64,000 bases of DNA from Bacilli bacterium (GCA_017522615.1 JAFWYR010000023.1:996-64995), one strand, 5' to 3'. Positions 4,336 to 58,587 are shown, numbered from the stretch's first letter. Notes: generated by a model not told the origin, from the sequence alone. A program made the numbers and translations.

Positions 4336-5500
4336 AATAATATTATTAATACTAGCTATTACAATTTTTCTTCCATTAAATGTATCAGCTTTATCAGATA
4401 AATATGTCGATAAAGTAGCAAGTATAACAGGTGAAGAAGTAAAAGAAGATAAAATAAGCATCTACCTATTTCATGGAGAAGAATGTCCTCACTGTGCGGA
4501 TGAAAAGAAGTGGTTAAAAACCATGCAAAAAGAATATGGAAAATATATAGATATATATACTTATGAAGTATGGCACAATGATGAAAATGTTGAAAAAATG
4601 GAAAAGGTAAGTGAAGAATTAAAAGCTGATGCCGACGGAGTACCATTCACAATTATTGGAGATACGTATTTCGTTGGATATTCTGATACAATAGCTTCAA
4701 AAATGGAAAATAAAATAAAAGAATATGCTGAAATAAAAACTAATTCTGATGAAGCTGATATTCCAATTCTGGGAAAGGTAAATGTCAAAAAAGTATCCAT
4801 TCCTTTAGTGGCTGTAATTTTAGGATTTATAGATGGATTTAATCCATGTGCTATGTGGATTTTACTATTTTTAATTAACATGTTTTTTAATATGAAAAAC
4901 AGAAAAAAAGCATGGATACTTGGAATAGTATTCCTTCTAGTATCAGCTTTTGTATATTTCTTATCCATGTTAGGAATAAATTTAATATTAGGAATTGCAA
5001 CTATTAGTATTCTTAAAATTGCCATCGCCGTATTTATTTTAATTGCTGGAATACTTAATCTAAAAAAATATATAACTATCAGAAATGAAGAAAATGGCTG
5101 TACCGTAGTCGATGATAAAAAAAGAAAAAAATTAATAACAAAAGTAAAAAAAATAATGGACAGTAAAAGCTTTATATTATCTATTGTTGGTATAATTTTA
5201 TTAGCCACCTCAGTTAATTTAATCGAACTTGCGTGCTCTCTAGGATTTCCAATGATATTTACAGAAATACTAAGTATTAATGAAATAACAGGACTACCTA
5301 GAATATTAAACTTACTACTATATATTGTATTCTATATGATTGATGATATGGTTGTATTTACAATTTCTATGGTTACCTTAGAAGCAACAGGTATAACAAA
5401 CAAATATAATAAATTATGTACATTAGTAAGTGCGATAATAATGATAATTATGGGACTATTATTAATCCTAAAACCAGAATGGTTAATGTTAAATTTTTAA
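4325..5500 (+). CDS. Membrane protein: exported thioredoxin-like domain fused to a DsbD/CcdA-like polytopic domain
   Basis: An N-terminal signal/TM segment is followed by GEECPHCADEKKW (CxxC), then multiple TM helices including GFIDGFNPCAMWILLFL (a conserved membrane Cys, as in CcdA/DsbD-type electron transporters). Confidence 0.55.
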   Translation: MKNKIILLILAITIFLPLNVSALSDKYVDKVASITGEEVKEDKISIYLFHGEECPHCADEKKWLKTMQKEYGKYIDIYTYEVWHNDENVEKMEKVSEELKADADGVPFTIIGDTYFVGYSDTIASKMENKIKEYAEIKTNSDEADIPILGKVNVKKVSIPLVAVILGFIDGFNPCAMWILLFLINMFFNMKNRKKAWILGIVFLLVSAFVYFLSMLGINLILGIATISILKIAIAVFILIAGILNLKKYITIRNEENGCTVVDDKKRKKLITKVKKIMDSKSFILSIVGIILLATSVNLIELACSLGFPMIFTEILSINEITGLPRILNLLLYIVFYMIDDMVVFTISMVTLEATGITNKYNKLCTLVSAIIMIIMGLLLILKPEWLMLNF

Positions 5501-46748: not shown

Positions 46749-49700
46749 TTAAGGTTCCTTTTCTTCTGTAGTAGTTACAGTAACTTCAAGCTTTCCAATT
46801 GAAGTACCCGAATATTTACAATCATAAGTCACTAAATAAGTTCCAGGAGTATTTGATACTTCATTTATATCTACTTCTTTCTTAGTTGTTTTATCGGTAT
46901 AAGTAGGTTTACCAAAATCAATTTCACTAGTTATATCTTCACCATTAGCTGTTGCTTTGACATGATCAGCAGGATTATATTTAAAGTTTGAACCTGCAAT
47001 CCAACTAGTTGAAATACTTGTTTGCGAAAGTTTAACATCGCTTGGACTAATACCTTTGTAATCTACAGCTATTTCAGTACCAGAGCTTTCTGCCCCTTTA
47101 AATACCGTATAAGTAGATTTGACTACAACTTTTGGATTACTAGCATTGGATAATTTAATTGTCGCACTAGTATCACCAGTTGATGTAACTAATCTCATGT
47201 TTCCATTTTCTTTTAAATAAACATCGTAAGTAACACTACCTAAAACTCCATTATTATATCCCATAACATGTGACAAGAATGAAGATCTATCTTTATCTAA
47301 AGCAAATGCTTTATCGACAAAACCTTGCCAGTAGCTTGGATTTAATCCTTCTGGAGTACCGATACCTTTCCAAGAAAGAGATAACATATTACCTTTAACG
47401 GTACCCCTTAAATCTGTTACATTACCCAAAGTATTAAATCTTGCAGAAGATTCAGTAGGCTTACTATCAGATTTAAATAATTCAGTAGTTATTTCTGAAG
47501 CAGGAGTATTAGCTCCAGGAAGTAGAGGAGTACCAGTATTTTTTTCAACCCCAACTTCAACTAATCCTTCAGGTTTAGCAAACGTTGAATCAGATTTAAA
47601 GAAATTCTTAGCCACAGCTTGGAATAATCTCGAATTCTGGCTTGAACCAAATTTATTATAAAGTCCACTAGAATTATCTTCATATCCATACCAAACAGCT
47701 ATAGTATAATCTGGACTAATACCAGCAACCCATAAATCGTTAACTGCATAATCAGGGAATCCTCTAGCTGCGAGTGTCTTTTTATCAAAGTTTGTCGTTC
47801 CTGTTTTAGCTCCAAACTGAGCTCCATTAATATTACTATAATTACCTAAAGCATTTTTACCAGTATCAACAAGCATATCTGTAACCATATATGCTGTTTC
47901 AGGACTCATCACTTTTTTCTTTTCAGTATTACTTTCATAAGTTTTATCATCTTTATCAAATTCAATTTTAGTAAAACTATAAGGTTTAACATAATATCCA
48001 CCATTCGCAAACGTTTCATAAGCTCCAGCAACAGTCATAGGAGATTCTCCAGTATAACCACCTATAGAGTGAGCTTGATGGATAAATCCAGTACTATCTA
48101 CCTCTGGTGATAAACCAATACTTTGTACAAAATCTTTAATTTGTGAATTTTTCAAACTTTGGAATGTTTTCAAAGCAGGTATATTTCTAGATTCAATCAA
48201 AGCTTGTCTAATAGTCATAAGACCTTTATATCCACCATCCCAGTTGTTAATTTCAGTACCATCACTATACGTATGTGGTTCATCGATAATCATATGAGAT
48301 GGATTCCAATTGTTATATTCAATAGCAGGACCATAATCGTACATTGGTTTAGCAGTAGAACCAATTTGTCTTTTTATCTGTGTAGCATTATTTCTACTTC
48401 TCGCACCAGATTTGTTTCTTCCAGCTCCGACAGCAACGATTGCTCCAGTTTTAGTATCAAGAGCAATAATACCAGCTTGAACTGAATCATTTTCCCAATC
48501 AAATGATTCGCCCTTCATAATAGCTGAAACTTTATCTTGTTTTTCTCTATCCATAGTAGTATATACTTTCATCGAATAAGAATATGGATTAAATCCAGTT
48601 TGATCTTCGACATCTTCAGCAACAGTATCAATAAACCCTTGATATTCTGAGCCAGTTGAACTAGCACTTCTTCCTTTAATAACAATCTTATCGACAGTTA
48701 ATTCTTTAGCTATATTATATTCGGCATTATTAATATATCCATGACGTTTCATAAGAGATAAAACTAATTTTCTTCTAGCTTCTGTCTTTTCAGGATGAAT
48801 GTTAGGATCAAATGTAACTGGTGATTGGAACATACCAGCTATCATTGCTGCTTCAGAAACATTCAAATCTTTCGCATTTTTATCAAAATATGTTTGAGCA
48901 GCTTGTTCAACACCATAAGCCCCACTACCTAAATAATATGAATTAGCATAAAATTCAATTATTTGTTCTTTAGAATACTTCTTTTCAATTTGAAACATTG
49001 AAATATATATATCAGTAAATTTACGTTTAATACCTTCAATACCAGATGAAGTAGTTGAAGTAAATTGGTTTTTAGAAACCTGCATGGTTAAGGTTGAAGC
49101 TCCACCAGCATTCTGTCCCATAGCTTGACCGAAAGAAGCTTTAAGGAATCTTGGTAAATCGAAACCATTATGTTCAAAAAATCTAGAATCCTCCGTTGCC
49201 ACAATAGCATTTATCATCTCTTCACTCATCTGATCATAACTAATTTTTTGTCTCATTTCAGAACCTAGTTTCGCAAATACTTGTCCATTACTATCGAGTA
49301 GGGTACTAGCTTCTTTAGAATAAAGTTTATTAGGATCAAATTTTCCAGCAGTTGCCGCTATATAAAGTACAAAAGAAACAACTCCAACTACTCCAATAAT
49401 GAAAAATAACATCAATACTATTAATACTTTCTTCCATATCTTCATTTTCTTTTTACCATTTTTCTTAAGTTTCACAGCTTTAGTTCTTCTTTTATTTGGC
49501 ATATCATCACTACTTTCTTCTGGAAAATCGTTTTTAACTCTTCTAACTCTACTTCCAGATCGACTTTCTCTAATTCTTCTTCTATCATTAATCTTTTTTC
49601 TCCATTTCAAATATGGTATAGTCCACACTAGATTAACGAGTACAAACAATAAAAGGGAAACAAAAACATTAAATAAAATCAAAGAAATTACAAAAATAAC

Positions 49701-49778
49701 AATTGATAAAATAAAAATGATAAGATTAAATTTTTCTTTTCCCATAAAAGCTTTAATATTCTCAAATTCTTGTTTCAT
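46749..49778 (-). CDS. ponA: Class A penicillin-binding protein PBP1A (glycosyltransferase + transpeptidase) with N- and C-terminal extensions
   Basis: GT51 motifs (ATEDSRFFEHNGFD, GASTLTMQ) and transpeptidase motifs (STAKP, KTGTT). The start ATG overlaps the recU stop (ATGA). Confidence 0.9.
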   Translation of the reverse strand: MKQEFENIKAFMGKEKFNLIIFILSIVIFVISLILFNVFVSLLLFVLVNLVWTIPYLKWRKKINDRRRIRESRSGSRVRRVKNDFPEESSDDMPNKRRTKAVKLKKNGKKKMKIWKKVLIVLMLFFIIGVVGVVSFVLYIAATAGKFDPNKLYSKEASTLLDSNGQVFAKLGSEMRQKISYDQMSEEMINAIVATEDSRFFEHNGFDLPRFLKASFGQAMGQNAGGASTLTMQVSKNQFTSTTSSGIEGIKRKFTDIYISMFQIEKKYSKEQIIEFYANSYYLGSGAYGVEQAAQTYFDKNAKDLNVSEAAMIAGMFQSPVTFDPNIHPEKTEARRKLVLSLMKRHGYINNAEYNIAKELTVDKIVIKGRSASSTGSEYQGFIDTVAEDVEDQTGFNPYSYSMKVYTTMDREKQDKVSAIMKGESFDWENDSVQAGIIALDTKTGAIVAVGAGRNKSGARSRNNATQIKRQIGSTAKPMYDYGPAIEYNNWNPSHMIIDEPHTYSDGTEINNWDGGYKGLMTIRQALIESRNIPALKTFQSLKNSQIKDFVQSIGLSPEVDSTGFIHQAHSIGGYTGESPMTVAGAYETFANGGYYVKPYSFTKIEFDKDDKTYESNTEKKKVMSPETAYMVTDMLVDTGKNALGNYSNINGAQFGAKTGTTNFDKKTLAARGFPDYAVNDLWVAGISPDYTIAVWYGYEDNSSGLYNKFGSSQNSRLFQAVAKNFFKSDSTFAKPEGLVEVGVEKNTGTPLLPGANTPASEITTELFKSDSKPTESSARFNTLGNVTDLRGTVKGNMLSLSWKGIGTPEGLNPSYWQGFVDKAFALDKDRSSFLSHVMGYNNGVLGSVTYDVYLKENGNMRLVTSTGDTSATIKLSNASNPKVVVKSTYTVFKGAESSGTEIAVDYKGISPSDVKLSQTSISTSWIAGSNFKYNPADHVKATANGEDITSEIDFGKPTYTDKTTKKEVDINEVSNTPGTYLVTYDCKYSGTSIGKLEVTVTTTEEKEP

Positions 49779-50341
49779 TTACTACCTCCAAAATATAATG
49801 TGTTTAAGACAGAAATATAATCGACTCTAGGATTATACTTATCTTTAATTATATATCCACTTTCTTCAAAATATGAAAGGGGAATTGATTTACGACTTGT
49901 ATTATCTAAAAAATCACTTAAAGCCTCATAAGTTAATAAAAAGGTTTTATTTAAAACAGTAAAGCGAACTATTAAAAAACCTATTCCACCGTGACTATAA
50001 ATACGTTTTAAATGTTCAATCTGATGTTTATGTATATTACTTAAAGGAAACGAAGTTTTACTCTTAGTTTCTTTAGCTTCAAAATCTATATACTTTCCCT
50101 TATATACACCATTATAATCAGTAGTTGACGGAGTTCTAAAATAACCTTCCTTAATTACAGCTTCAACCCTAGATGGATAATTAACTTTTGAAATTGTAAT
50201 TGGTGTAGGTTTTTTATAAATAACCGCAATATCATTAACTAAATAATATTCATTAGTTGCCCCTAAATCAGCTTCTAAAGTCATTCCACGATTGGCATAA
50301 CTACTTAAGCCTTTAGCCCCAAATGTTTTTATCATACGCAA
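49775..50341 (-). CDS. recU: Holliday junction resolvase RecU
   Basis: SYANRGMTLEADLGATNEYYLVNDIAVIYKKPTPI parallels B. subtilis RecU ([33 protein letters not shown]). DFEAKET is the catalytic motif. Confidence 0.9.
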   Translation of the reverse strand: MRMIKTFGAKGLSSYANRGMTLEADLGATNEYYLVNDIAVIYKKPTPITISKVNYPSRVEAVIKEGYFRTPSTTDYNGVYKGKYIDFEAKETKSKTSFPLSNIHKHQIEHLKRIYSHGGIGFLIVRFTVLNKTFLLTYEALSDFLDNTSRKSIPLSYFEESGYIIKDKYNPRVDYISVLNTLYFGGSK

Positions 50342-50496
50342 GCACCACTATAATTATACTACTATTTTATAATTTTTTCCACTCTAAAATTAAGCTTATA
50401 AAAAACTTCTATTTTTACAATAATTTACATATAAAAATGCAAAAAAATAGTATTAATTATAAAAAAGTGCTATTATAAACTCGGAGGATAATACTT

Positions 50497-53400
50497 ATGA
50501 GCGAAAATACAAAAAAAGAGTTAGATGAAGTTTTATCTCATTTTAATATGACTAACATAGAACAGCTAAGAGATAATCTAGAAGCCATTATTTGGATTAT
50601 AGAAAATGAAAAGTTAAGAGCTATGTCATATTTAAGTGACAATAATTTAGTAGATAATATTACACTTCCAAAAGAAATTGAAGCTCACATTGATGAAACC
50701 TTTGAAAGAATTTTTAATAATCCAGAAAAGCTTACAGAATATATTAACTCAGGTGATTTAGATATTATTAATATGTTTTATTCTAATGCCTGGACAGATG
50801 ACAACGTCGATGCATTTATAAACCTAAAAAAAACAAAAGATATAAGTGTTCCATCGGCATTATATAGTAAAGTAAGATATTTTAACTACTGTATTACACA
50901 TCAAAAAATTGATGAACTTCATAAATTCAGTGACTCTTCACTTTGGACTGATGAAAATATAGACATATATATTGAAATTATAAGCCATAATAATGTAAAA
51001 GAAATACCGTATGCGGTTAGAAATAACGAATACATGTTAAAAAAAATAATAGAAAGAAAAATGTACGAATGTCTTGAACTATTCTTTGGTGAAGTTTGGA
51101 GTGACAACAATATAAGAATATTGTGTGAAAACATTGACTCATATATAGACTATTTAATTTCAAGTAAAAATGGCTTTATATATTTTTTAAGGGGAAATAG
51201 TGATTTTCTAAAAAGATTATTAGAAAGAAACATTTATCATTTTTTAAATGATTTTTATTCGCGATGTTGGACCGATGAAAACAAAAAAATACTTATGAAT
51301 AATATCGATTCATATCTAGATTATTTAGCAAATAACAATGATATAATTCCTAATGAAATAGAATATTTATTAAAAGAAGATGCTTATGTATTAGAAATGG
51401 TCTTAAATAAAAAAATATATAGATTGTTAAGGCTTTTTGATAATAGTGAAATATGGAATGAAGAAATGACTGACATGCTAAAAAATCAAATGCTAGATTA
51501 TATTTTATATTTAAAAGAATCAAATATTTCATCTGAAAATAACATTTTTTTCTCAAATCGTGCATACATTCCATATCCTCTTCGCTATAGTAGTGAATTT
51601 CTTCAAGAAGTCTTAGAAAATGAGCTGTTTGAATATCTAACTATCTTCTATCCAGAAGCATGGAACACTGAAATACCAAAAGAAAAACTTGATTCATATG
51701 TAGATTTTTTAGGAAAATCAGACAAAAAAATAATAATACCATATGAATTATATTCAAATAAATATCTATTGAAAAAGATTTTAGAGAAAGGTCTGCATCA
51801 ATACATGCATGACTTTTATTCAACAGCTTGGACGAGTGACAACATAAGCACGTTAGCTCATAGTATAATTTCAAAAAAGCACTTTGATGAATTAATTACC
51901 AAAGATTTTGTGGGAAAAAATAATAATATGTTATTTGAAAACAGTCTATTTAGGCAAATAAGTTTTAAATATCACCCAGAGTATATTCTTCTATACAAAG
52001 GTGAAAGTAATGAGGTAATAGAAGATTTTATCAAACATATAGACTATAACATAGATGTTTTTGATAAATACATAACCCAAAATAAAGTGGAGGAAAGTCA
52101 AAAACTATTCAATTCTCAATCTTTTTGTAAATTTATCTTTTCGTATCATCCTGAATACATAAGACTATATCATGGCCACGAAGATATAACTTTTGAAAAA
52201 TTTTTAAACTGCATAAAATATAACTTAAAAATATTTGATAAATATTTTACTGAAGAAACTATATCTAGTAATCCAATGTATTTTAATTCAAAAGTCTTTC
52301 TTGAATTTGCCTTAAAACATCATCCAGAATATATAAAATATTGTACCAACAACAATGATATTGCATTGAAAGTCCTTCAAAATAATATAGAAGAAGGAAG
52401 CTACCAGTTTGAGGATGTTTTTGATTATGAAGAAATGCACGATTCATGGTTATCGAACTCTTGGTTTTTAAGTAATCTAGTAGATAAAGGTTTAATTGCT
52501 CCATCGATTTGTGAAAATAGAGAAATTTTGGATATTATTGAAAAGATTAGTCCTTCAGACGCTAGTGTATATAAATTGCTTCACCCAGATATATATAATC
52601 CACTATTTGATAAAATACCATTTACTTTTGACCAAATAATTAGATATGGAATGCTAGATGAAAATTTTCAAAGCATATTAGAAATAACAAAATCAAATAA
52701 GTTAGATAATGCATTAATAGTCTTCAACTACTTAAAACAAAATTATCCAGAAGAAAACGATGCATTTGGAATACCACTACTTCTAAAAACATCAAAAAAA
52801 TGTTTAAATAACGACTTTCAAAAATTACTATTAGAAATAACAAAAAGTAAAAAAACATTATCCAAAGAAGAAAACGAAAACCTATTATTCTTATTAAATA
52901 ATGATGTTGAAATAGAAAATTTAAATGTTGATAACTTAAAAGAAATAAAAAATATCGCTCACATACAAATAGAGGCAAGCATCGAAAGTATAATTGAAAG
53001 TGAACTTTCAGAACAAGAAAAGTCAAAATTATTAAGAGACAAATTATGCGAAGTATTAACTGGAAAAAATTATTCTGAATTTACGAATATGTTATCCCAT
53101 ACTGGAGACTATATAATGCTTGAAAGTCTATACAAAAGTACTCATTCATTAGAATTAGAACAAAAAATAATAGCGGCCATGACTAACTTAAGATTTATAT
53201 ATGATACTGTAATGAGAACATCGAGATATGATATGTTACTTAAAATATCTAAAATACTAATTGAAGATAACTTTGAAGATACTTTAGTTATTAAAAACTA
53301 TATGTCTAATTATGAAAAACATATTAGAACTATTCTTGAACTAGAAGCAAATGAAAAATTAACAAGTATTGAAGACGTCAAACAAGGAAAAATAAAAGGT

Positions 53401-54864
53401 TCTAAAATAAATGAAGACGGAACTATTGATTTAAGCCATAGTGAATATACCTTTTACGGACATGTTTTAATGCCTGGTCAAACTGTCAAAGACGTAATTG
53501 AAATAATAAAAACAGGCACTTCCCAAATATGTTTATCACCAATAAGTGATTTAGGCAAAAAGTTTTATCGAAATGACATAACTGTCTTATATACAAGAGT
53601 TCCTCAAAGTTCATATATTGGAAGTTCCAATGTAAACATGGGAAGTAATGGTTCAATTCCTTATGGCTCAGCTTCGGACAAAAATATAAGAGAACGTTTT
53701 TATCAACTAGGAATTAGAGATACTACTAACGCCTTACTCGAAGGACACGCCGAAACATTGTGCTGGAGAGATGGACTAATTCCAACGGCAATTATGCACA
53801 GGGATAATGGTAATCTAGGAGAAGAAAAAGCCTTCGCCAAAGAATTAGAAGCTGCACTTAACGAAGGAAAGCCAGAATCTGAATGGATAACTATACCAGT
53901 TATAATATCTCAAAAAGAAGGAACAAAAGGTTCTGTCCAAGAAGAAGATAGATATTATGAAATCGACAGTGATAAAACAAAAGGTATAGAAACTCCGTTT
54001 GATTACTTTAGTCAAATAGAGCCAGATGACGTATATGATATAATTGAAAAATCGCATATCTACTTAGGAGGAACTCATGAATTCTATACGTGCCGATTAA
54101 GAGGCAGAGAAGGATTTTACTTTTTAAAACCAACATTAACAATGGGTGGAAATTTAGGAGAACCTGGTAGACCATATATATCACATGCTGCAAGTAAACT
54201 ACAGGAAATAATAAATCCAGGCAATTCCCTAGATGTTAGAATAACTGAAGCTCCTGTAGGAATAAACGGTGAAATGATAAGATGTACAGCCTCTGAATAT
54301 TTAGAAGGAGGAACTGATTACAGCAGCTGGCAAAGTGAAGAAAACCCTAGAGAACTATCTCAAGAAGAAGTTTCAGCTTTTATGCACGAATTTATTGTTG
54401 ACCATTTAATGTATAGTTATGATACTAAAGGTGATAACTTTGTATCGTCAAATGGTAGAGTCTGCGGAATTGATAAAGAGCAAGCTTTAAAATTTGTCAT
54501 AGATGATGTTAGAAGAGGAGATATTACAAGTGGTTTTAATGAACATGAACATGACTATTCAAACAATAAACCACCAATATATATCAAAATATTTGAAATG
54601 TATGCAGATGGAAGACAATCTATTTCTGATGAAATATTTGAAGACTGCTATCAAAAATGTGAAATAATAGAGTCAATGAGTGATGAAGAGTATCTAGAGA
54701 TTTTTAGAGGATTTTTTGAAAATAGTATAGTATGTGAACAACCTGAAAATAAGAAGATTATAGAGGAAGCTTTATTACTTAGAAAGCGCACTTTAACGAA
54801 AGATTTTGAATCATTCATAGAAAGAAAAAAAGAAGAGGTGAAATCAAATGGAAAAACAAGATAA
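50497..54864 (+). CDS. Large (1455 aa) hypothetical cytoplasmic protein: N-terminal helical repeat arrays plus C-terminal protein-kinase-like region
   Basis: Uninterrupted ORF with the RBS CGGAGGA. It has seven (F/L)(F/Y)xxxxW(T/S)D(D/E)N-type repeats (Trp at aa 99, 150, 201, 258, 320, 389, 445) and three YHPEYI repeats (aa 493, 551, 609). Kinase-like motifs lie at 54064-54474. No signal peptide or TM segment. Confidence 0.7.
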   Translation: MSENTKKELDEVLSHFNMTNIEQLRDNLEAIIWIIENEKLRAMSYLSDNNLVDNITLPKEIEAHIDETFERIFNNPEKLTEYINSGDLDIINMFYSNAWTDDNVDAFINLKKTKDISVPSALYSKVRYFNYCITHQKIDELHKFSDSSLWTDENIDIYIEIISHNNVKEIPYAVRNNEYMLKKIIERKMYECLELFFGEVWSDNNIRILCENIDSYIDYLISSKNGFIYFLRGNSDFLKRLLERNIYHFLNDFYSRCWTDENKKILMNNIDSYLDYLANNNDIIPNEIEYLLKEDAYVLEMVLNKKIYRLLRLFDNSEIWNEEMTDMLKNQMLDYILYLKESNISSENNIFFSNRAYIPYPLRYSSEFLQEVLENELFEYLTIFYPEAWNTEIPKEKLDSYVDFLGKSDKKIIIPYELYSNKYLLKKILEKGLHQYMHDFYSTAWTSDNISTLAHSIISKKHFDELITKDFVGKNNNMLFENSLFRQISFKYHPEYILLYKGESNEVIEDFIKHIDYNIDVFDKYITQNKVEESQKLFNSQSFCKFIFSYHPEYIRLYHGHEDITFEKFLNCIKYNLKIFDKYFTEETISSNPMYFNSKVFLEFALKHHPEYIKYCTNNNDIALKVLQNNIEEGSYQFEDVFDYEEMHDSWLSNSWFLSNLVDKGLIAPSICENREILDIIEKISPSDASVYKLLHPDIYNPLFDKIPFTFDQIIRYGMLDENFQSILEITKSNKLDNALIVFNYLKQNYPEENDAFGIPLLLKTSKKCLNNDFQKLLLEITKSKKTLSKEENENLLFLLNNDVEIENLNVDNLKEIKNIAHIQIEASIESIIESELSEQEKSKLLRDKLCEVLTGKNYSEFTNMLSHTGDYIMLESLYKSTHSLELEQKIIAAMTNLRFIYDTVMRTSRYDMLLKISKILIEDNFEDTLVIKNYMSNYEKHIRTILELEANEKLTSIEDVKQGKIKGSKINEDGTIDLSHSEYTFYGHVLMPGQTVKDVIEIIKTGTSQICLSPISDLGKKFYRNDITVLYTRVPQSSYIGSSNVNMGSNGSIPYGSASDKNIRERFYQLGIRDTTNALLEGHAETLCWRDGLIPTAIMHRDNGNLGEEKAFAKELEAALNEGKPESEWITIPVIISQKEGTKGSVQEEDRYYEIDSDKTKGIETPFDYFSQIEPDDVYDIIEKSHIYLGGTHEFYTCRLRGREGFYFLKPTLTMGGNLGEPGRPYISHAASKLQEIINPGNSLDVRITEAPVGINGEMIRCTASEYLEGGTDYSSWQSEENPRELSQEEVSAFMHEFIVDHLMYSYDTKGDNFVSSNGRVCGIDKEQALKFVIDDVRRGDITSGFNEHEHDYSNNKPPIYIKIFEMYADGRQSISDEIFEDCYQKCEIIESMSDEEYLEIFRGFFENSIVCEQPENKKIIEEALLLRKRTLTKDFESFIERKKEEVKSNGKTR

Positions 54865-55012
54865 ACAAAAAGAAGAAGAATTAAAATCGTTAAAAGCGAT
54901 AACTAAAATAGTATCTCAAAACCCAGAACTATTTTCCGATATGAATAACATTATCCGAGAAAGTCATAAAAAATACATATTTAAAGAAAAAACTAAAAAG
55001 GCAAAAAAATAA
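54848..55012 (+). CDS. Possible 54-codon ORF translationally coupled to the large protein
   Basis: ATG 54848 lies 7 nt after AAGAGGTGA and overlaps the last 17 nt of the upstream CDS. It encodes MEKQDKQKEEELKSLKAITKIVSQNPELFSDMNNIIRESHKKYIFKEKTKKAKK. A weak hairpin and T-run follow. Confidence 0.4.
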   Translation: MEKQDKQKEEELKSLKAITKIVSQNPELFSDMNNIIRESHKKYIFKEKTKKAKK

Positions 55013-55233
55013 ATTTGCTTTTTTTTCTAAAAAAATATAGCTAACTTTGTCGAAAGTAATGAAAAGATAAATAATAACTGATATCATAAATTTGAAAGAA
55101 GGGAAGCTATGAAAATTGAAAAAATAAATAATATCTATAATTATATGATTGAAGAAATAGATTATTTAAAACGATTAACTTATGTTATAGAAATAAAACA
55201 TTAAACATTTACTTTACACCGAAAAATAAAAAC

Positions 55234-55264
55234 ATTGATTGATAAATAAATAAAGATGTTATAA
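55234..55264 (+). promoter_or_regulatory. Extended -10 promoter for the 423-aa gene
   Basis: TGtTATAAT at 55256-55264, with TTGATT/TTGATA -35-like hexamers at 55234-55243 (non-optimal 19/15-nt spacing). Confidence 0.45.
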
Positions 55265-55294
55265 TAAAATAAAAGAGTAAAAGGAGGGCTTCAT

Positions 55295-56566
55295 ATGAAT
55301 CAATGTAGAAAAGAAATAGATTTTTCCTCATTACCATTAATCATTCAAGATATGATTGAAGAAAATGTTCCTTCAGCAGCAATAATAGATGAAATGTTAG
55401 AAACAAAAGGCGAAATGAGTACCATAGGAGCTTTAATAATACTAGATGATATGAATATTAGAGGTGTTCAAATAAGTACACTTTATAAAATATGCCATCA
55501 AAACATCGATGAGTTTTATGAAAAAATAATAACAATAACTCCTGAAGATATAGATAAATTAAATTATGAAACATTCGCGATTTGTAAATATAAAGCAATA
55601 TTCGACGGAAATAAAGAAGAAAGAAAACAAAATCCTGATAAGTATATCTTTACAGATGAAGAACGTACTGATTTAAGAAACAAAAAAAGTAAAGATCATG
55701 TTCAAGAAATATTAAATGACAATCAATCATTAAAAAAAACTAACGATGATTTATACCCAAGTATATCCTCAAAAGAAGCAATTGAAATCATCAACAAAAA
55801 TGGATTTACATGTGGATATAAAAAAAACTATGAAGATATTAATGGAAGAAATATAATATACCGAGTATTCTATAATGATTTAGGAGATATATTATATACC
55901 CATTCATTAGAAGAACCTGATATTTTCTTATATGGACAATCCAAATTAAATGCCGTAAGAATAAATACTGTATCAGATTATGAAGATCTAGGTTGTAATG
56001 CCTACGTAAATGTGGACGGTGTTGTAGGATATAATATCGAATTAAGAGAAAAACCTTTTGAAAAATATCAAAAAATATTAGATAGAAAAGAACCAACTAT
56101 AAAAACTATTAAACACAATTATTATGATAGTAATTTGTATCCGATAATAGAATCTATTGAAGGTATAAACTATAAAACAGAAAATGAAGGTTACGATTCA
56201 TTAGTAATTTCCGAAATATATAGTTTATTAACATTCCCGGAAACATACTATGATTTAGATGACAGATTAAAACAGATATATAGTACTTTATTATCTTTTG
56301 CTGAAGAAAAAGCCTATGATGAGATAATATATCAGTTAAATAGTGATGAGGCAATCGATACTATAATTAATCTTCAAAAAGTATTAGGAATAAGCTTAGA
56401 TAAAGAAAAATTAATAGAAGCCAAAAATAGATTTTTAAGAATCAGTAAAAGTCATTTTAACATACCAAGACCTAGATTTTTAAGTGATTTTATTGTTAAG
56501 GATCCACAAGGTAAAAATTTAGAAGAGAGAATTGAAAAAGTTATGAAGCAAACTGTAGAAAATTAA
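55295..56566 (+). CDS. Hypothetical protein (423 aa)
   Basis: ORF with the strong RBS AAAGGAGGG. No signal peptide and no recognised motif. It is flanked by a bidirectional terminator. Confidence 0.55.
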   Translation: MNQCRKEIDFSSLPLIIQDMIEENVPSAAIIDEMLETKGEMSTIGALIILDDMNIRGVQISTLYKICHQNIDEFYEKIITITPEDIDKLNYETFAICKYKAIFDGNKEERKQNPDKYIFTDEERTDLRNKKSKDHVQEILNDNQSLKKTNDDLYPSISSKEAIEIINKNGFTCGYKKNYEDINGRNIIYRVFYNDLGDILYTHSLEEPDIFLYGQSKLNAVRINTVSDYEDLGCNAYVNVDGVVGYNIELREKPFEKYQKILDRKEPTIKTIKHNYYDSNLYPIIESIEGINYKTENEGYDSLVISEIYSLLTFPETYYDLDDRLKQIYSTLLSFAEEKAYDEIIYQLNSDEAIDTIINLQKVLGISLDKEKLIEAKNRFLRISKSHFNIPRPRFLSDFIVKDPQGKNLEERIEKVMKQTVEN

Positions 56567-56590
56567 AAACCACTGTTATGTGGTTTTTTT
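56565..56590. terminator. Bidirectional terminator between convergent genes
   Basis: AAAAACCAC-tgttat-GTGGTTTTT hairpin with A/T runs on both sides. Confidence 0.75.
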
Positions 56591-57634
56591 ATTTAAAACA
56601 TAAAATGCATAATATTCTTCCAAAGTTAAATCTTCATCAAATATTATTTTAGCCGCTTTTTCTCCAACATACCTATAATGCCATGATTCATATTTATATC
56701 CTGTAACATTCTCTTTATCTTTAGGAAATCTTATAATAAAACCGTATTTATAGGCGTTATCTTTAAGCCATTTAGCTGCATCTGTTCCATCGAAACTATC
56801 ATCTATAGTATTGATATCCGTACATAATCCTGTCTGATGTTCTGAATATCCAGCTCTTGCTGAATAAATATCAGCTTTTTCTTTTCCATCTCTTAAGACA
56901 TAACTATTATATAAATTTACTTGATAGGAATAACTTCTATATGCTGAAGCATTCTTTAAAGTAATTCCATCTAACATAGCTCCATCGACCATCTTCATAA
57001 AAGCTTCCGCTGCTTCTTTTCGCATTGAACTATTTCTTCCACTATTATATTTAGAAGTTAAAGTAACTAAATCATCCGGCTCATATCCATCTGGTAAATG
57101 ATTATATTTATTTACTAAAATCAAGTTATTATCACTTAGTTTAGCTTCATTAGTTTTAGAATAGAAATCTAAATCTGCATCTGCATTAACTATTGAAACT
57201 ATTTTTTTAGAACTGATTTTATTACTATTTCCATAATCTAAATATCTAGCCACATTAGAATTTATATAGTATTTTTCCTTAACTAAACTAGCAAGTAAGC
57301 TAGAAGCAGGATAATCCATCAAATCATAACCACTATTCACGATAGTAACAATATCAGAAATCTTAGAGTTACTATTTTTTTCATAATATTTTATATACTC
57401 TTTAAATTTATTTTTCTTATAATCTTTAGACGATATTAAATCTATTAAAGAATCATCATATTTCTTATAAAAGTAATTATAATCATCTTTTGAAACCATT
57501 TTAACTATTTTGTTAATTTCTTTTTCACTATATCCAGCCTTCGAAAAATTATTTTTTCTATTAAATATAATAAAACATAAAACAATTAAAATTACTATAA
57601 TAATTATTATTAACCATTTTTTAATCTTTTTCAT
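56576..57634 (-). CDS. Membrane-anchored D-alanyl-D-alanine carboxypeptidase (VanY/LdcB, peptidase M15B)
   Basis: N-terminal TM anchor. LVNKYNHLPDGYEPDDLV, SAYRSYSYQ, SEHQTGLCTDI and ESWHYRYVG are the Zn ligands and catalytic motifs of VanY-type enzymes. Confidence 0.8.
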   Translation of the reverse strand: MKKIKKWLIIIIIVILIVLCFIIFNRKNNFSKAGYSEKEINKIVKMVSKDDYNYFYKKYDDSLIDLISSKDYKKNKFKEYIKYYEKNSNSKISDIVTIVNSGYDLMDYPASSLLASLVKEKYYINSNVARYLDYGNSNKISSKKIVSIVNADADLDFYSKTNEAKLSDNNLILVNKYNHLPDGYEPDDLVTLTSKYNSGRNSSMRKEAAEAFMKMVDGAMLDGITLKNASAYRSYSYQVNLYNSYVLRDGKEKADIYSARAGYSEHQTGLCTDINTIDDSFDGTDAAKWLKDNAYKYGFIIRFPKDKENVTGYKYESWHYRYVGEKAAKIIFDEDLTLEEYYAFYVLNKKTT

Positions 57635-57642
57635 ATCAAAAC

Positions 57643-58587
57643 CTACTTATCTAAATAATATGCATAATACTCGTCAAAAGTTAAACCACTTTCATAAACT
57701 TTTTTAGCAAGTTCTTTTCCAAGAAAGCGGTAGTGCCATGCCTCATAAGAATATCCTGTAATGCCTTCCTTATCCTTAGGATATCTTAAAATAAATCCAT
57801 ATTTATAACTATTATCTTGAAGCCATTTAAAAGCTTCAGAATTTTCAAACGTTTTCATACCATAACCCGGCGAAAAAATATCTAGTGCAAGGCCGGTTTG
57901 ATGTTCCGAATAGTTAGGCCTAGCTGCATACTTGTCCGCATATTCCTCTCCGTTTTTATCTCGGTAATCATCGTATATTTCTTTTTGTTCATCGTAAGAC
58001 CTATATGAAGAATTAACTATTATAGTATGACCATCACTTTTAGCCGCTTTACTCATCTCTTTAAAAGCCTCATAAACATCTTTTCTAATACTATTGTTTG
58101 GATATGCATAAGCGCTATTCATTTGTTCTATATCATCTGGAGCATATTTATCTGGCAAACTATAATATTTATTTACTAAAATTCCAAATCCTAAATCCAT
58201 ATTTGTCTCACTAGTATGAGTATATGCATCATAAACAGTTTTTGTGTTCACCCTAGTAATAACATCATTATAATCGATTTTAGTACCTTTATATTCCTTA
58301 GTCATATATCTCTTATAATTATCGTAATTTTTCCAAATAAAATATTTCTGAGAAGTAAGTGTAATTAAATATCTGTCATACTTATTTTTTAAAGCATAAT
58401 CTATACTTTTTTGATCCAAATTTTTAATCTTTAATATCTCTTCTTCACTATAACCTATTTGAGTTAATTTATATTCTAAACTATTATAATGCTTATATAA
58501 AGCAATCCCAATAAAAATAATTATAAATCCCACTACTATAGAAGTTAAAATAATAATAGGACCTTTTTTAATTCTACGTTTCTTCAT
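57643..58587 (-). CDS. Membrane-anchored D-alanyl-D-alanine carboxypeptidase (VanY/LdcB family), second tandem copy
   Basis: LVNKYYSLPDKYAPDD, SSYRSYDEQ, SEHQTGLALDI and EAWHYRFLG motifs, with an N-terminal TM anchor. Confidence 0.8.
   Translation of the reverse strand: MKKRRIKKGPIIILTSIVVGFIIIFIGIALYKHYNSLEYKLTQIGYSEEEILKIKNLDQKSIDYALKNKYDRYLITLTSQKYFIWKNYDNYKRYMTKEYKGTKIDYNDVITRVNTKTVYDAYTHTSETNMDLGFGILVNKYYSLPDKYAPDDIEQMNSAYAYPNNSIRKDVYEAFKEMSKAAKSDGHTIIVNSSYRSYDEQKEIYDDYRDKNGEEYADKYAARPNYSEHQTGLALDIFSPGYGMKTFENSEAFKWLQDNSYKYGFILRYPKDKEGITGYSYEAWHYRFLGKELAKKVYESGLTFDEYYAYYLDK

Follow-up and report, generated by a model that had tools for sequence, protein, structure and literature searches.

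The gene at positions 50497–54864 (+) of the analysed window, a 64,000-nucleotide stretch of a Bacilli bacterium MAG, encodes a 1455-aa protein that is probably a chromosomal relative of the multi-effector ('polyvalent') proteins of phages and would act as a phosphotransferase. The protein can be read as four parts, with two N-terminal repeat arrays followed by a helical region, an α/β domain and a C-terminal kinase-fold domain.

In agreement with the initial annotation, a single uninterrupted ORF of 1455 codons was found, starting with ATG and registered at NCBI as 'hypothetical protein' (MBR3898534.1, IKJ43_04585). Stops are expected at ~9% of random codons in this DNA, and given the base composition of the region, a stop-free run of this length has a probability of ~1e-61. 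A good ribosome-binding site, GGAGGA, was also read from the sequence at 50483–50488 (+), 8 nt 5' of the ATG, as had been described. The proposed lack of a signal peptide and of transmembrane segments was borne out as well, as the N-terminus is polar and acidic, no signal peptide or other secretion signal was seen in the protein and the top Kyte–Doolittle mean over 19-residue windows was 0.7, with no membrane segment. The ORF is a real and intact gene, and its product is large and cytoplasmic. No Pfam or NCBIfam threshold was passed by the protein, and PADLOC defence models gave no match at E ≤ 1 to it or to its 423-aa neighbour.

An AlphaFold model of aa 695–1455 (pLDDT 85.5, pTM 0.82) places the C-terminal domain (54040–54831 (+), aa ~1182–1445) in the protein-kinase-like superfamily, as a two-lobed kinase fold of PI3K/PI4K/HipA type. 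The region 54034–54700, previously proposed to be enzymatic, is the core of this domain and has kept all the catalytic residues. In the alignment of 39 sequences, the columns G, K, Q, E, D, L, D and N, followed by G-x-D-K-E-Q, are invariant, and they map to G1191, K1211, Q1236, E1298, D1302, D1309, N1314 and D1326. The Gly-rich loop (L-G1191-G1192-T) and the strand-3 ATP-binding Lys (F-L-K1211-P, within strand 514–518 of the model) are present, as are the catalytic loop D1302..D1309..N1314 and the DFG equivalent G1324-I-D1326-K-E-Q, in which the catalytic-loop Asp and Asn and the metal-binding Asp (D1309, N1314 and D1326) are invariant. In classical kinases a helix-C glutamate pairs with the catalytic lysine; this Glu is absent from the 1455-aa protein, which has His at that position. 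The position is variable (E/K/L/D) in the subfamily that carries the middle module, and is Glu in the subfamily of phage and stand-alone proteins. Judged by its residues, the domain looks catalytically competent.

When the model was compared with the PDB by Foldseek, a probability of 1.00 was obtained for PI4KIIα (4hne_B), PI4KIIβ, CtkA (3akk/3akl) and PknB, and many other eukaryotic-type kinases followed at 0.97–0.99. The domain is closest to type II PI4-kinases, HipA/CtkA kinases and LepB_N. With PI4KIIα/β it shares the kinase fold (TM 0.48 on target for 4hne_B) and a catalytic loop that a PDB profile search set in register with PI4KIIβ ('DYIIRNTDRGNDNW'; VDHLMYSYDTKGDNF vs LDYIIRNTDRGNDNW), but identity is just 11–15%, no insert for palmitoylation or membrane binding was recognised in the 1455-aa protein, and its C-lobe has a conserved helical extension of its own. 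No known phosphoinositide substrate would be expected in the source bacterium. The Pfam model PI3_PI4_kinase (PF00454) matched 8 of 36 family members weakly (best E = 2.7e-4) and HipA_C gave weak matches in 6 of the 36, whereas the 1455-aa protein itself was not matched by PF00454 even at E ≤ 10. HipA-family kinases, including CtkA, are bacterial Ser/Thr kinases that serve as toxins or effectors. The structures of Helicobacter pylori CtkA (PF07804 HipA_C) rank high among the structural matches of the domain, with TM values of 0.38–0.47 on target; however, identity is ~13%, Pfam HipA_N and Couple_hipA are lacking in the 1455-aa protein, and no HTH-type (HipB) antitoxin gene was found by Pfam among the scanned neighbours. 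The likeness to Legionella LepB_N (PF18640) comes from one weak precomputed match in a stand-alone relative (P0190), and the 1455-aa protein differs in having no LepB_N match, Rab-GAP domain or type IV secretion context.

The description of the protein as an orphan did not hold, as 267 homologues were found at E ≤ 1e-3 in an exhaustive HMMER search, including 24 at E ≤ 1e-30, and the C-terminal ~750 aa have hundreds of relatives. Among the 150 matches listed, all homologues match the C-terminal part with the exception of one fragment of the same gene; 23–38 proteins cover aa 700–1175, and 110–175 matched stretches, with tandem copies counted twice, cover aa 1225–1450. The homology is clear, but it does not extend over the full length and does not lead to a characterised protein. 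Nor could the statement be kept that no described family has such an architecture, as the last domain falls within the known protein-kinase-like superfamily, close to PI3K, PI4K and HipA, and multi-effector phage proteins with this kinase behind MuF fit the polyvalent or MuF polymorphic toxin class (PMC5512222, PMC5576092). The overall picture of a repeat or scaffold N-terminus fused to an enzymatic C-terminus was right.

Kinase-domain relatives are encoded on 98 IMG/VR contigs. In all three viral contigs examined, the relative lies inside a ~1140-aa Phage_Mu_F + Rho_N protein, fused to the phage head protein MuF; a Portal_Mu gene is placed directly 5' of the MuF-kinase gene in both contigs with an upstream ORF scanned, and a terminase gene also precedes it in the one contig scanned for it. 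Foldseek against viral models matched phage PI3K/PI4K catalytic-domain proteins and a 1340-aa mycobacteriophage protein annotated as an ADP-ribosyltransferase (E = 6e-8), and McProf gp54 combines VG15, a kinase-like region and ADPrib_exo_Tox. In gut Firmicutes, relatives stand alone or in tandem. Other family members join the kinase with Metallophos, NUDIX, ART or SMODS domains, in keeping with what has been published on polyvalent and MuF proteins (PMC5512222, PMC5576092). The likeness to these proteins lies in the varied partner domains of the kinase family and in its use by many tailed phages as cargo of MuF proteins whose genes adjoin those for portal and terminase. In the 1455-aa protein, the kinase is joined to a conserved α/β domain that may or may not be a further effector. 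In contrast, the 1455-aa protein has no MuF domain (Phage_Mu_F/VG15), its neighbours are housekeeping genes without prophage, and its middle module gave no match in viral collections.

This middle module (aa ~695–1140) is restricted to ~35 large proteins of up to ~2750 aa among the 150 matches listed, and all the loci examined for it are chromosomal. Its first part (52579–53391 (+), aa ~695–965) is all-helical, corresponding to the helices of model residues 1–270, where 10-residue pLDDT means are 67–96 and mostly >80, and is kept in about 30–38 homologues. The second part (53419–53916 (+), aa ~975–1140) was delimited from alignments and from the strands and helices of the model as an α/β domain, in which Ser1050 and Glu1086 are invariant and Tyr987, His989, Ser1043, Asn1047 and Arg1091 are nearly invariant. 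No described family was matched by the module, and a profile search of the PDB gave no sequence match to the α/β domain. From its conserved polar residues, the α/β domain may be a second enzyme or contain a pocket for a ligand.

A two-enzyme effector, in which the kinase would work alongside a diverged ADP-ribosyltransferase (ART) that uses NAD+, represented by the α/β domain, is possible though doubtful. As a lead only, His989 could take the Arg/His position, Y-I-G-S1043-S that of the 'STS' motif and H-A-E1086-T-L that of the catalytic Glu strand. In the model and the alignment, the His and the GSS lie at strand ends and the Glu opens a strand, with a second strand next to it, but the same residues would also be compatible with a Ser/His/Glu hydrolase site. 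The spacings are 54 aa from His to Ser and 43 aa from Ser to Glu, which would be similar to the distances in ARTs of the cholera-toxin and C3 types. However, no ART was found among all PDB sequences by profile search, and hhalign gave a probability of 0.2% against two PF03496-type ART domains, a very shallow template. Kinase and ART domains do occur together in phage MuF proteins. In one lineage a NADAR gene, of a family tied to the reversal of ADP-ribosylation (PMC9503650), lies directly 3' of a 2701-aa homologue, although this arrangement was observed in a single species and unrelated genes are beside other homologues.

The N-terminal part contains the two repeat arrays. Repeat family A (50656–51903 (+), aa 54–469) consists of seven degenerate units of 54–66 aa, with 20–40% pairwise identity and the core (F/L)(F/Y)xxxxW(T/S/N)(D/E)xN. 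Their Trp residues are at aa 99, 150, 201, 258, 320, 389 and 445, exactly as the initial annotation had listed them, and IDSY(I/L)DYL follows the core in units 3, 4 and 6, with a degenerate form in unit 5. The three 58-aa HPEYI repeats that had also been described were seen at 51904–52425 (+), aa 470–643 (family R); they are 21–40% identical and all carry (K/S/H)(Y/H)HPEYI. The best ungapped 30-aa self-matches of the protein scored 86, 83, 83 and 74 (BLOSUM62), whereas in 30 shuffled sequences the maximum was 39 ± 4 on average and never >50. Therefore, the repeats are far beyond chance. As only short stretches with 70–82% DNA identity are left between them, the repeats are old, in line with the divergence reported before. 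The arrays are, however, limited to aa 54–643, and therefore the protein is not 'built from' two repeat families as had been stated.

Kinship between families A and R was not demonstrable by hhalign (probability 0.25%). The sole match to the family A region was the fragment of the same gene among the 150 matches listed, and for family R a few homologues align, starting at about aa 443–470. Unit 3 of family R resembles DUF4116 (PF13475) at sub-threshold E values of 0.026 and 0.005, and one large homologue does so at E = 2e-4, but the best score, 16.8 bits, fell short of the Pfam cut-off of 24.9, and the other two R and the seven A units were unmatched. Both arrays are probably helical and probably form a binding or scaffold surface.

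The genes around the big ORF are those first described, with ponA (46749–49778, −) and recU (49775–50341, −) upstream and, on the 3' side, a 423-aa ORF, two VanY/LdcB genes and then ruvX. The housekeeping neighbours also include dnaD and nth, and no flanking repeats were found around the 6-kb block. Housekeeping signalling by the kinase, linked through its neighbours to cell-wall synthesis (ponA, LdcB/VanY) or to recombination (recU, ruvX), would fit the position of the big ORF in a core-genome region, between recU-ponA and the two VanY/LdcB genes, and a locus that is identical across several samples. Nevertheless, we regard such a role as highly improbable. Homologues with the middle module and kinase lie beside glmS/engB/der, FtsW/Dus or thymidylate synthase, and therefore the neighbourhood is not conserved; moreover, neither a membrane sensor nor a PASTA-type one is present in the protein, the main role of the kinase family is that of phage cargo, and family A is confined to the same gene in the matches cited above.

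Immediately downstream, a 54-aa Lys/Glu-rich ORF (54848–55012 (+)) shares 17 nt with the end of the big ORF and is called in all same-species contigs, being on these gene calls a putative gene. A 31-aa ORF (55109–55204 (+)) is called in same-species contigs too, although calling is no proof of a gene. The 423-aa ORF (55295–56566 (+), MBR3898536.1), probably co-transcribed with the big ORF, had no match in Pfam, NCBIfam, PADLOC or PHROGs at the thresholds used, nor in PDB sequences or isolate phages; it is alone in its cluster at 90% identity, and it is present on same-species contigs. In a consensus scan, the first terminator-like site on the + strand past the big ORF was a two-way hairpin at 56565–56588. 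As no such site comes before 56565, the scan suggests that the big ORF and the downstream ORFs share one transcript, from 50497 to 56566.

The effector-type domain and the same-strand ORFs directly downstream, with no terminator between, are also what would be expected of an exported or contact-dependent toxin with immunity provided by one of these ORFs (54, 31 or 423 aa), and immunity genes adjoin MuF toxins (PMC5576092). We consider this the least probable reading: the protein shows no signal peptide or membrane segment and, by Pfam, no trafficking or MuF domain, no secretion genes were found among the Pfam-scanned neighbours (45.5–59.6 kb), and no detectable relatives of the downstream ORFs lie beside homologues.

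A frameshift in close relatives, which would have spoken against the gene, was found in part. A 1-nt deletion interrupts the ORF in one metagenome contig of the same species, but two others that span the site (L148 and L149) are intact there, and two that cover the 3' part only (L150 and L152) show no break. As the deletion lies in a short A run, it may be an assembly error. In a 21-kb strain comparison, the only two differences were both amino-acid changes in the big ORF. Therefore, relaxed selection is possible. With the loss of the helix-C Glu and the absence of a MuF domain and partner genes, these data could describe a decaying, non-functional remnant of a mobile-element polyvalent protein. 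However, such decay is very unlikely, given the open frame across 1455 codons, the good ribosome-binding site, the intact ORF in other spanning contigs and the retention of all conserved catalytic residues in both conserved domains. The gene looks maintained, being intact in spanning contigs, with a good ribosome-binding site and no terminator-like site before 56565.

For the preferred reading, that of a chromosomal relative of phage polyvalent proteins, the architecture, the homology, the fold and the catalytic residues are established, and from them we infer activity, substrate and a role in conflict. Against this reading speak the lack of a MuF domain, of a prophage setting, of a secretion signal and of a PADLOC match, the failure of the protein to pass any Pfam or NCBIfam threshold, the His at the helix-C position and the possible relaxed selection. 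The most likely mechanism would be ATP-dependent phosphorylation of an intracellular protein or small-molecule target by the kinase, with the middle module and the repeats setting target choice or activation. The MuF-fused phage kinases would enter the host cell along with the DNA, and, rather than in housekeeping, the 1455-aa protein would most likely act in conflicts of the cell with its phages or with other mobile elements. A more specific proposal, unlikely on present evidence, is that the middle module is a new enzyme, either an ART-like user of NAD+ or a hydrolase. Combined in one chromosomal gene with the kinase and with repeats serving as a fast-evolving 'sensor', it would then make up a system for defence or abortive infection. 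If so, this system would employ a kinase that phages themselves deliver as MuF cargo, and the large homologues of gut Firmicutes would represent an undescribed class of such systems.

The gene at 50497-54864 on the forward strand is a single open reading frame of 1455 aa, exactly as placed in the initial annotation, with an ATG start and, 8 nt upstream of it, a GGAGGA motif that bears out the good ribosome-binding site noted there. Stops make up ~9.2% of random codons in the local DNA, and the chance of 1455 stop-free codons is ~1e-61. The protein had also been described as free of transmembrane segments, in agreement with a highest 19-residue hydropathy mean of 0.7 and an acidic N-terminus.

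The N-terminal part of the protein consists of two families of internal repeats, family A (aa 54-469), with seven units at 20-40% pairwise identity and the tryptophans at the positions first reported (aa 99, 150, 201, 258, 320, 389 and 445), and family R (aa 470-643), with three 58-aa units at 21-40% identity. Profile comparison revealed no demonstrable kinship between the two families. The best ungapped 30-residue self-matches of the protein scored 86, 83, 83 and 74, against a maximum of 39 +/- 4 in shuffled sequences, where a score above 50 was never reached; the repeats are statistically solid. At the DNA level, the similarity between units is only 70-82% over stretches of at most 53 nt, and because it is so eroded the arrays must be old, as had been proposed. 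Both the gene and its repeats are real.

The neighbourhood was also found as described, with dnaD, nth, ponA and recU upstream and, downstream, a 423-aa ORF, two VanY/LdcB paralogues, ruvX and a DUF1292 gene; no att-like repeats were detected at the flanks of the 6-kb block between recU-ponA and VanY/ruvX. The 423-aa ORF (55295-56566, forward strand) probably shares a transcript with the 1455-aa gene. No match to it came from Pfam, NCBIfam, PADLOC and PHROGs at the thresholds applied, or from PDB sequences and isolate phages; it is the sole member of its 90%-identity cluster, the sequence being present on at least 10 contigs of the same species. Between the 1455-aa and 423-aa genes, gene callers placed two tiny ORFs on the same strand, one of 54 aa, rich in Lys and Glu (54848-55012), which overlaps the end of the big ORF by 17 nt, and one of 31 aa (55109-55204); the NCBI locus tags skip one number at these ORFs, from 04585 to 04595. 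Directly after the block, the tandem VanY/LdcB-type carboxypeptidase genes (56576-57634 and 57643-58587) lie on the reverse strand, and both products score far under the NCBIfam cut-offs of the vancomycin-resistance VanY and VanXY models. Therefore, they are taken to be ordinary cell-wall enzymes.

The same locus, with recU, the 1455-aa ORF, the 54-, 31- and 423-aa ORFs and then VanY, was recovered on at least 10 contigs from several samples. Compared with contig L148 of the same species, the window differs at 2 of 21,272 bases, both inside the big ORF and both changing an amino acid (C210F in the third unit of repeat family A and N793K in the helical region); the sample is tiny, but the pattern could point to diversifying or relaxed selection. 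On L147, a 5.9-kb contig of the same species, one nt is missing from a three-A run (window ~51464, L147 1689-1692); the change from GAAGAAATG to GAAGAATG splits the ORF into 323 and 1132 aa, and the 1132-aa product was found on a second short contig too. With so few contigs to compare, this deletion may reflect variation between strains, a mistake in the assembly or incipient decay of the gene.

When the whole protein was compared with Pfam, NCBIfam, PADLOC and PDB sequences no match was obtained, and PHROGs gave only noise (E >= 0.05). A word-indexed homology search returned solely the protein itself, annotated as "hypothetical protein" in a MAG of a Bacilli bacterium. Taken alone, this last result would have wrongly backed the earlier view of the protein as an orphan, which was reversed by an exhaustive HMMER search with aa 256-1455 against 1.84 billion representatives, yielding 267 proteins at E <= 1e-3, 117 at E <= 1e-10 and 24 at E <= 1e-30. 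When the best 150 of these 267 matches were mapped back, conservation proved to be layered along the protein, with a single homologue over aa 1-300, 2-6 over aa ~450-700, 23-38 proteins over aa ~700-1175, and, with each tandem pair counting as two, 110-175 matched stretches over aa ~1225-1450. The lone homologue of aa 1-300 is a fragment of the same gene, and among those 150 matches family A has no other relatives. The architecture is new, with a known fold and a conserved but uncharacterised module at its centre.

In an alignment of 36 copies of the C-terminal domain (aa ~1182-1445), the invariant and near-invariant positions spell out a kinase, with a Gly-rich G-G loop, the Lys of (Y/F)(L/I/F)(F/L/Y)KP, the motif E-x-x-x-D-x-L-x-x-x-x-D-x-x-x-x-N and G-(I/V)-D-K-E-Q. 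The corresponding residues of the studied protein are G1191/G1192, K1211, E1298, D1302, D1309, N1314 and D1326; the helix-C Glu is replaced by His, at a position that is variable in the subfamily carrying the middle module. A profile search of PDB sequences reached only E = 1, yet the catalytic loop fell in register with that of PI4K type IIβ. An AlphaFold model of aa 695-1455 built from a 39-sequence alignment reached pLDDT 85.5 and pTM 0.82 (a single-sequence model of aa 867-1455, with pLDDT 34, was unusable), and with this model Foldseek matched H. pylori CtkA, PI4KIIα, PI4KIIβ and PknB with probability 1.00 and many further protein kinases with 0.97-0.99. Among viral models, it matched phage proteins bearing a PI3K/PI4K catalytic-domain annotation. 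At a lax threshold, PI3_PI4_kinase was found in 8 of the 36 members and HipA_C in 6, with no other recurring Pfam family; a weak LepB_N match appeared in one stand-alone relative. The studied protein itself fails the Pfam models PI3_PI4_kinase, HipA_C and DUF4116, and no PADLOC model matched it. From the motifs, the fold matches and the weak recurrence of these two Pfam families, the C-terminal domain is assigned to the PI3K/PI4K/HipA side of the kinase superfamily, as a distant family that Pfam does not model, and its catalytic set is complete. The annotation "hypothetical protein" can be replaced by "PI3K/PI4K-like kinase domain-containing repeat protein".

A scan of IMG/VR showed a relative of the kinase encoded on 98 viral contigs. 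In the three long ones examined, the domain lies within a ~1140-aa protein together with Phage_Mu_F and Rho_N; a Portal_Mu gene directly precedes the kinase-bearing gene in both of the contigs whose upstream ORF was scanned, and in the single contig scanned for the relevant ORF it comes after a terminase gene. The product gp54 of prophage McProf joins a VG15 head domain to a kinase-like region and carries ADPrib_exo_Tox at its C-terminus. Further domains in family members are Metallophos, NUDIX, ART and SMODS, and tandem kinase pairs occur in many relatives. Two kinase-like copies are seen in many proteins of 1000-2200 aa (P0027, P0028, P0032, P0035 and others), the first copy matching the catalytic half only. 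In Clostridia, an 1894-aa protein (contig L097, 1565-7249) has a calcineurin-like phosphoesterase (Metallophos) at its C-terminus in addition to the middle module and the kinase, so that kinase and phosphoesterase stand within one chain. Polyvalent proteins and MuF polymorphic toxins have been described with the same pattern (PMC5512222, PMC5576092, PMC9503650); the kinase of PMC5512222 may be another family, since its features and hosts differ from those found here.

Stand-alone copies of ~270 aa are common in genomes of gut Bacilli and Clostridia, and were chromosomal in both loci examined. On contig L001 (6900-15090), just past a Tad pilus locus, a stand-alone kinase of 280 aa (P0037) overlaps the end of a 1034-aa ORF by 4 nt and is followed by ORFs of 406 and 975 aa, these three ORFs having no family match. 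These genes may make up a multi-gene system of their own around the same kinase; the 1034-aa ORF, the kinase and the 406-aa ORF were also considered as a split version of the studied locus, which was rejected as they show no similarity to it.

The middle module (aa ~695-1140) is common to about 35 proteins, the full-length ones mostly of 1300-2750 aa; four species-representative genomes encode it, as do seven metagenome contigs. At the loci that were examined, a single large gene with this module lies amid housekeeping genes (glmS/engB/der; FtsW/Dus; thymidylate synthase). No relative was found in isolate phages, plasmids or, with two peptide patterns, IMG/VR, and a word-indexed search with the module alignment returned nothing. 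In the AlphaFold model, aa ~702-962 are all helices and aa ~985-1140 form an α/β domain, in which Ser1050 and Glu1086 are the same in all 23 sequences compared, and Tyr987, His989, Ser1043, Asn1047 and Arg1091 in nearly all. Two module profiles gave only chance matches against PDB sequences (designed helical proteins, GPCR loops), and Foldseek with the whole aa 695-1455 model gave kinases only among the 50 matches listed. The α/β domain is therefore a candidate new enzyme, having a few conserved polar residues and no relatives by sequence among solved structures.

An ADP-ribosyltransferase-like nature of this α/β domain is a lead of fairly low probability: His, GSS and Glu follow one another in an order that recalls these enzymes, as does the place of each residue on its strand, but hhalign against two classical (PF03496) ART domains gave a probability of 0.2%. 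Likewise, a NADAR gene lies directly downstream of a module homologue in one lineage, although this adjacency is not general among the homologue loci. The NADAR gene (162 aa; contigs L086, 8473-8961, and L156, 4221-4709), seen in one species only, follows a 2701-aa homologue that carries both the middle module and the kinase. A mycobacteriophage "ADP-ribosyltransferase" match, first suspected to align with the module, is uninformative on it, because in McProf gp54 the ART domain comes after the kinase-like region.

A protein with this domain architecture, homology, kinase fold and intact catalytic set, which the analysis establishes, would be expected to phosphorylate an intracellular target, with specificity or control supplied by the middle module and the repeats; no studied target was found for the kinase family. 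The protein would act in conflict with phages or other mobile elements, as this is the setting in which most of the kinase family occurs. In its mode of working, the protein is likened to the polyvalent and MuF effector kinases. It is not a member of that class, since the defining MuF domain and a prophage context were both looked for and are absent.

The kinase-fold family lies outside the reach of Pfam, yet it is common in head-packaged phage MuF proteins and in gut Firmicutes. If the middle module were a new enzyme, or the protein a defence system, the significance would rise. The combination of a chromosomal kinase, a conserved module and unique repeats suggests that one effector domain serves both host and phage, which makes the question of its substrate testable with a few point mutants.
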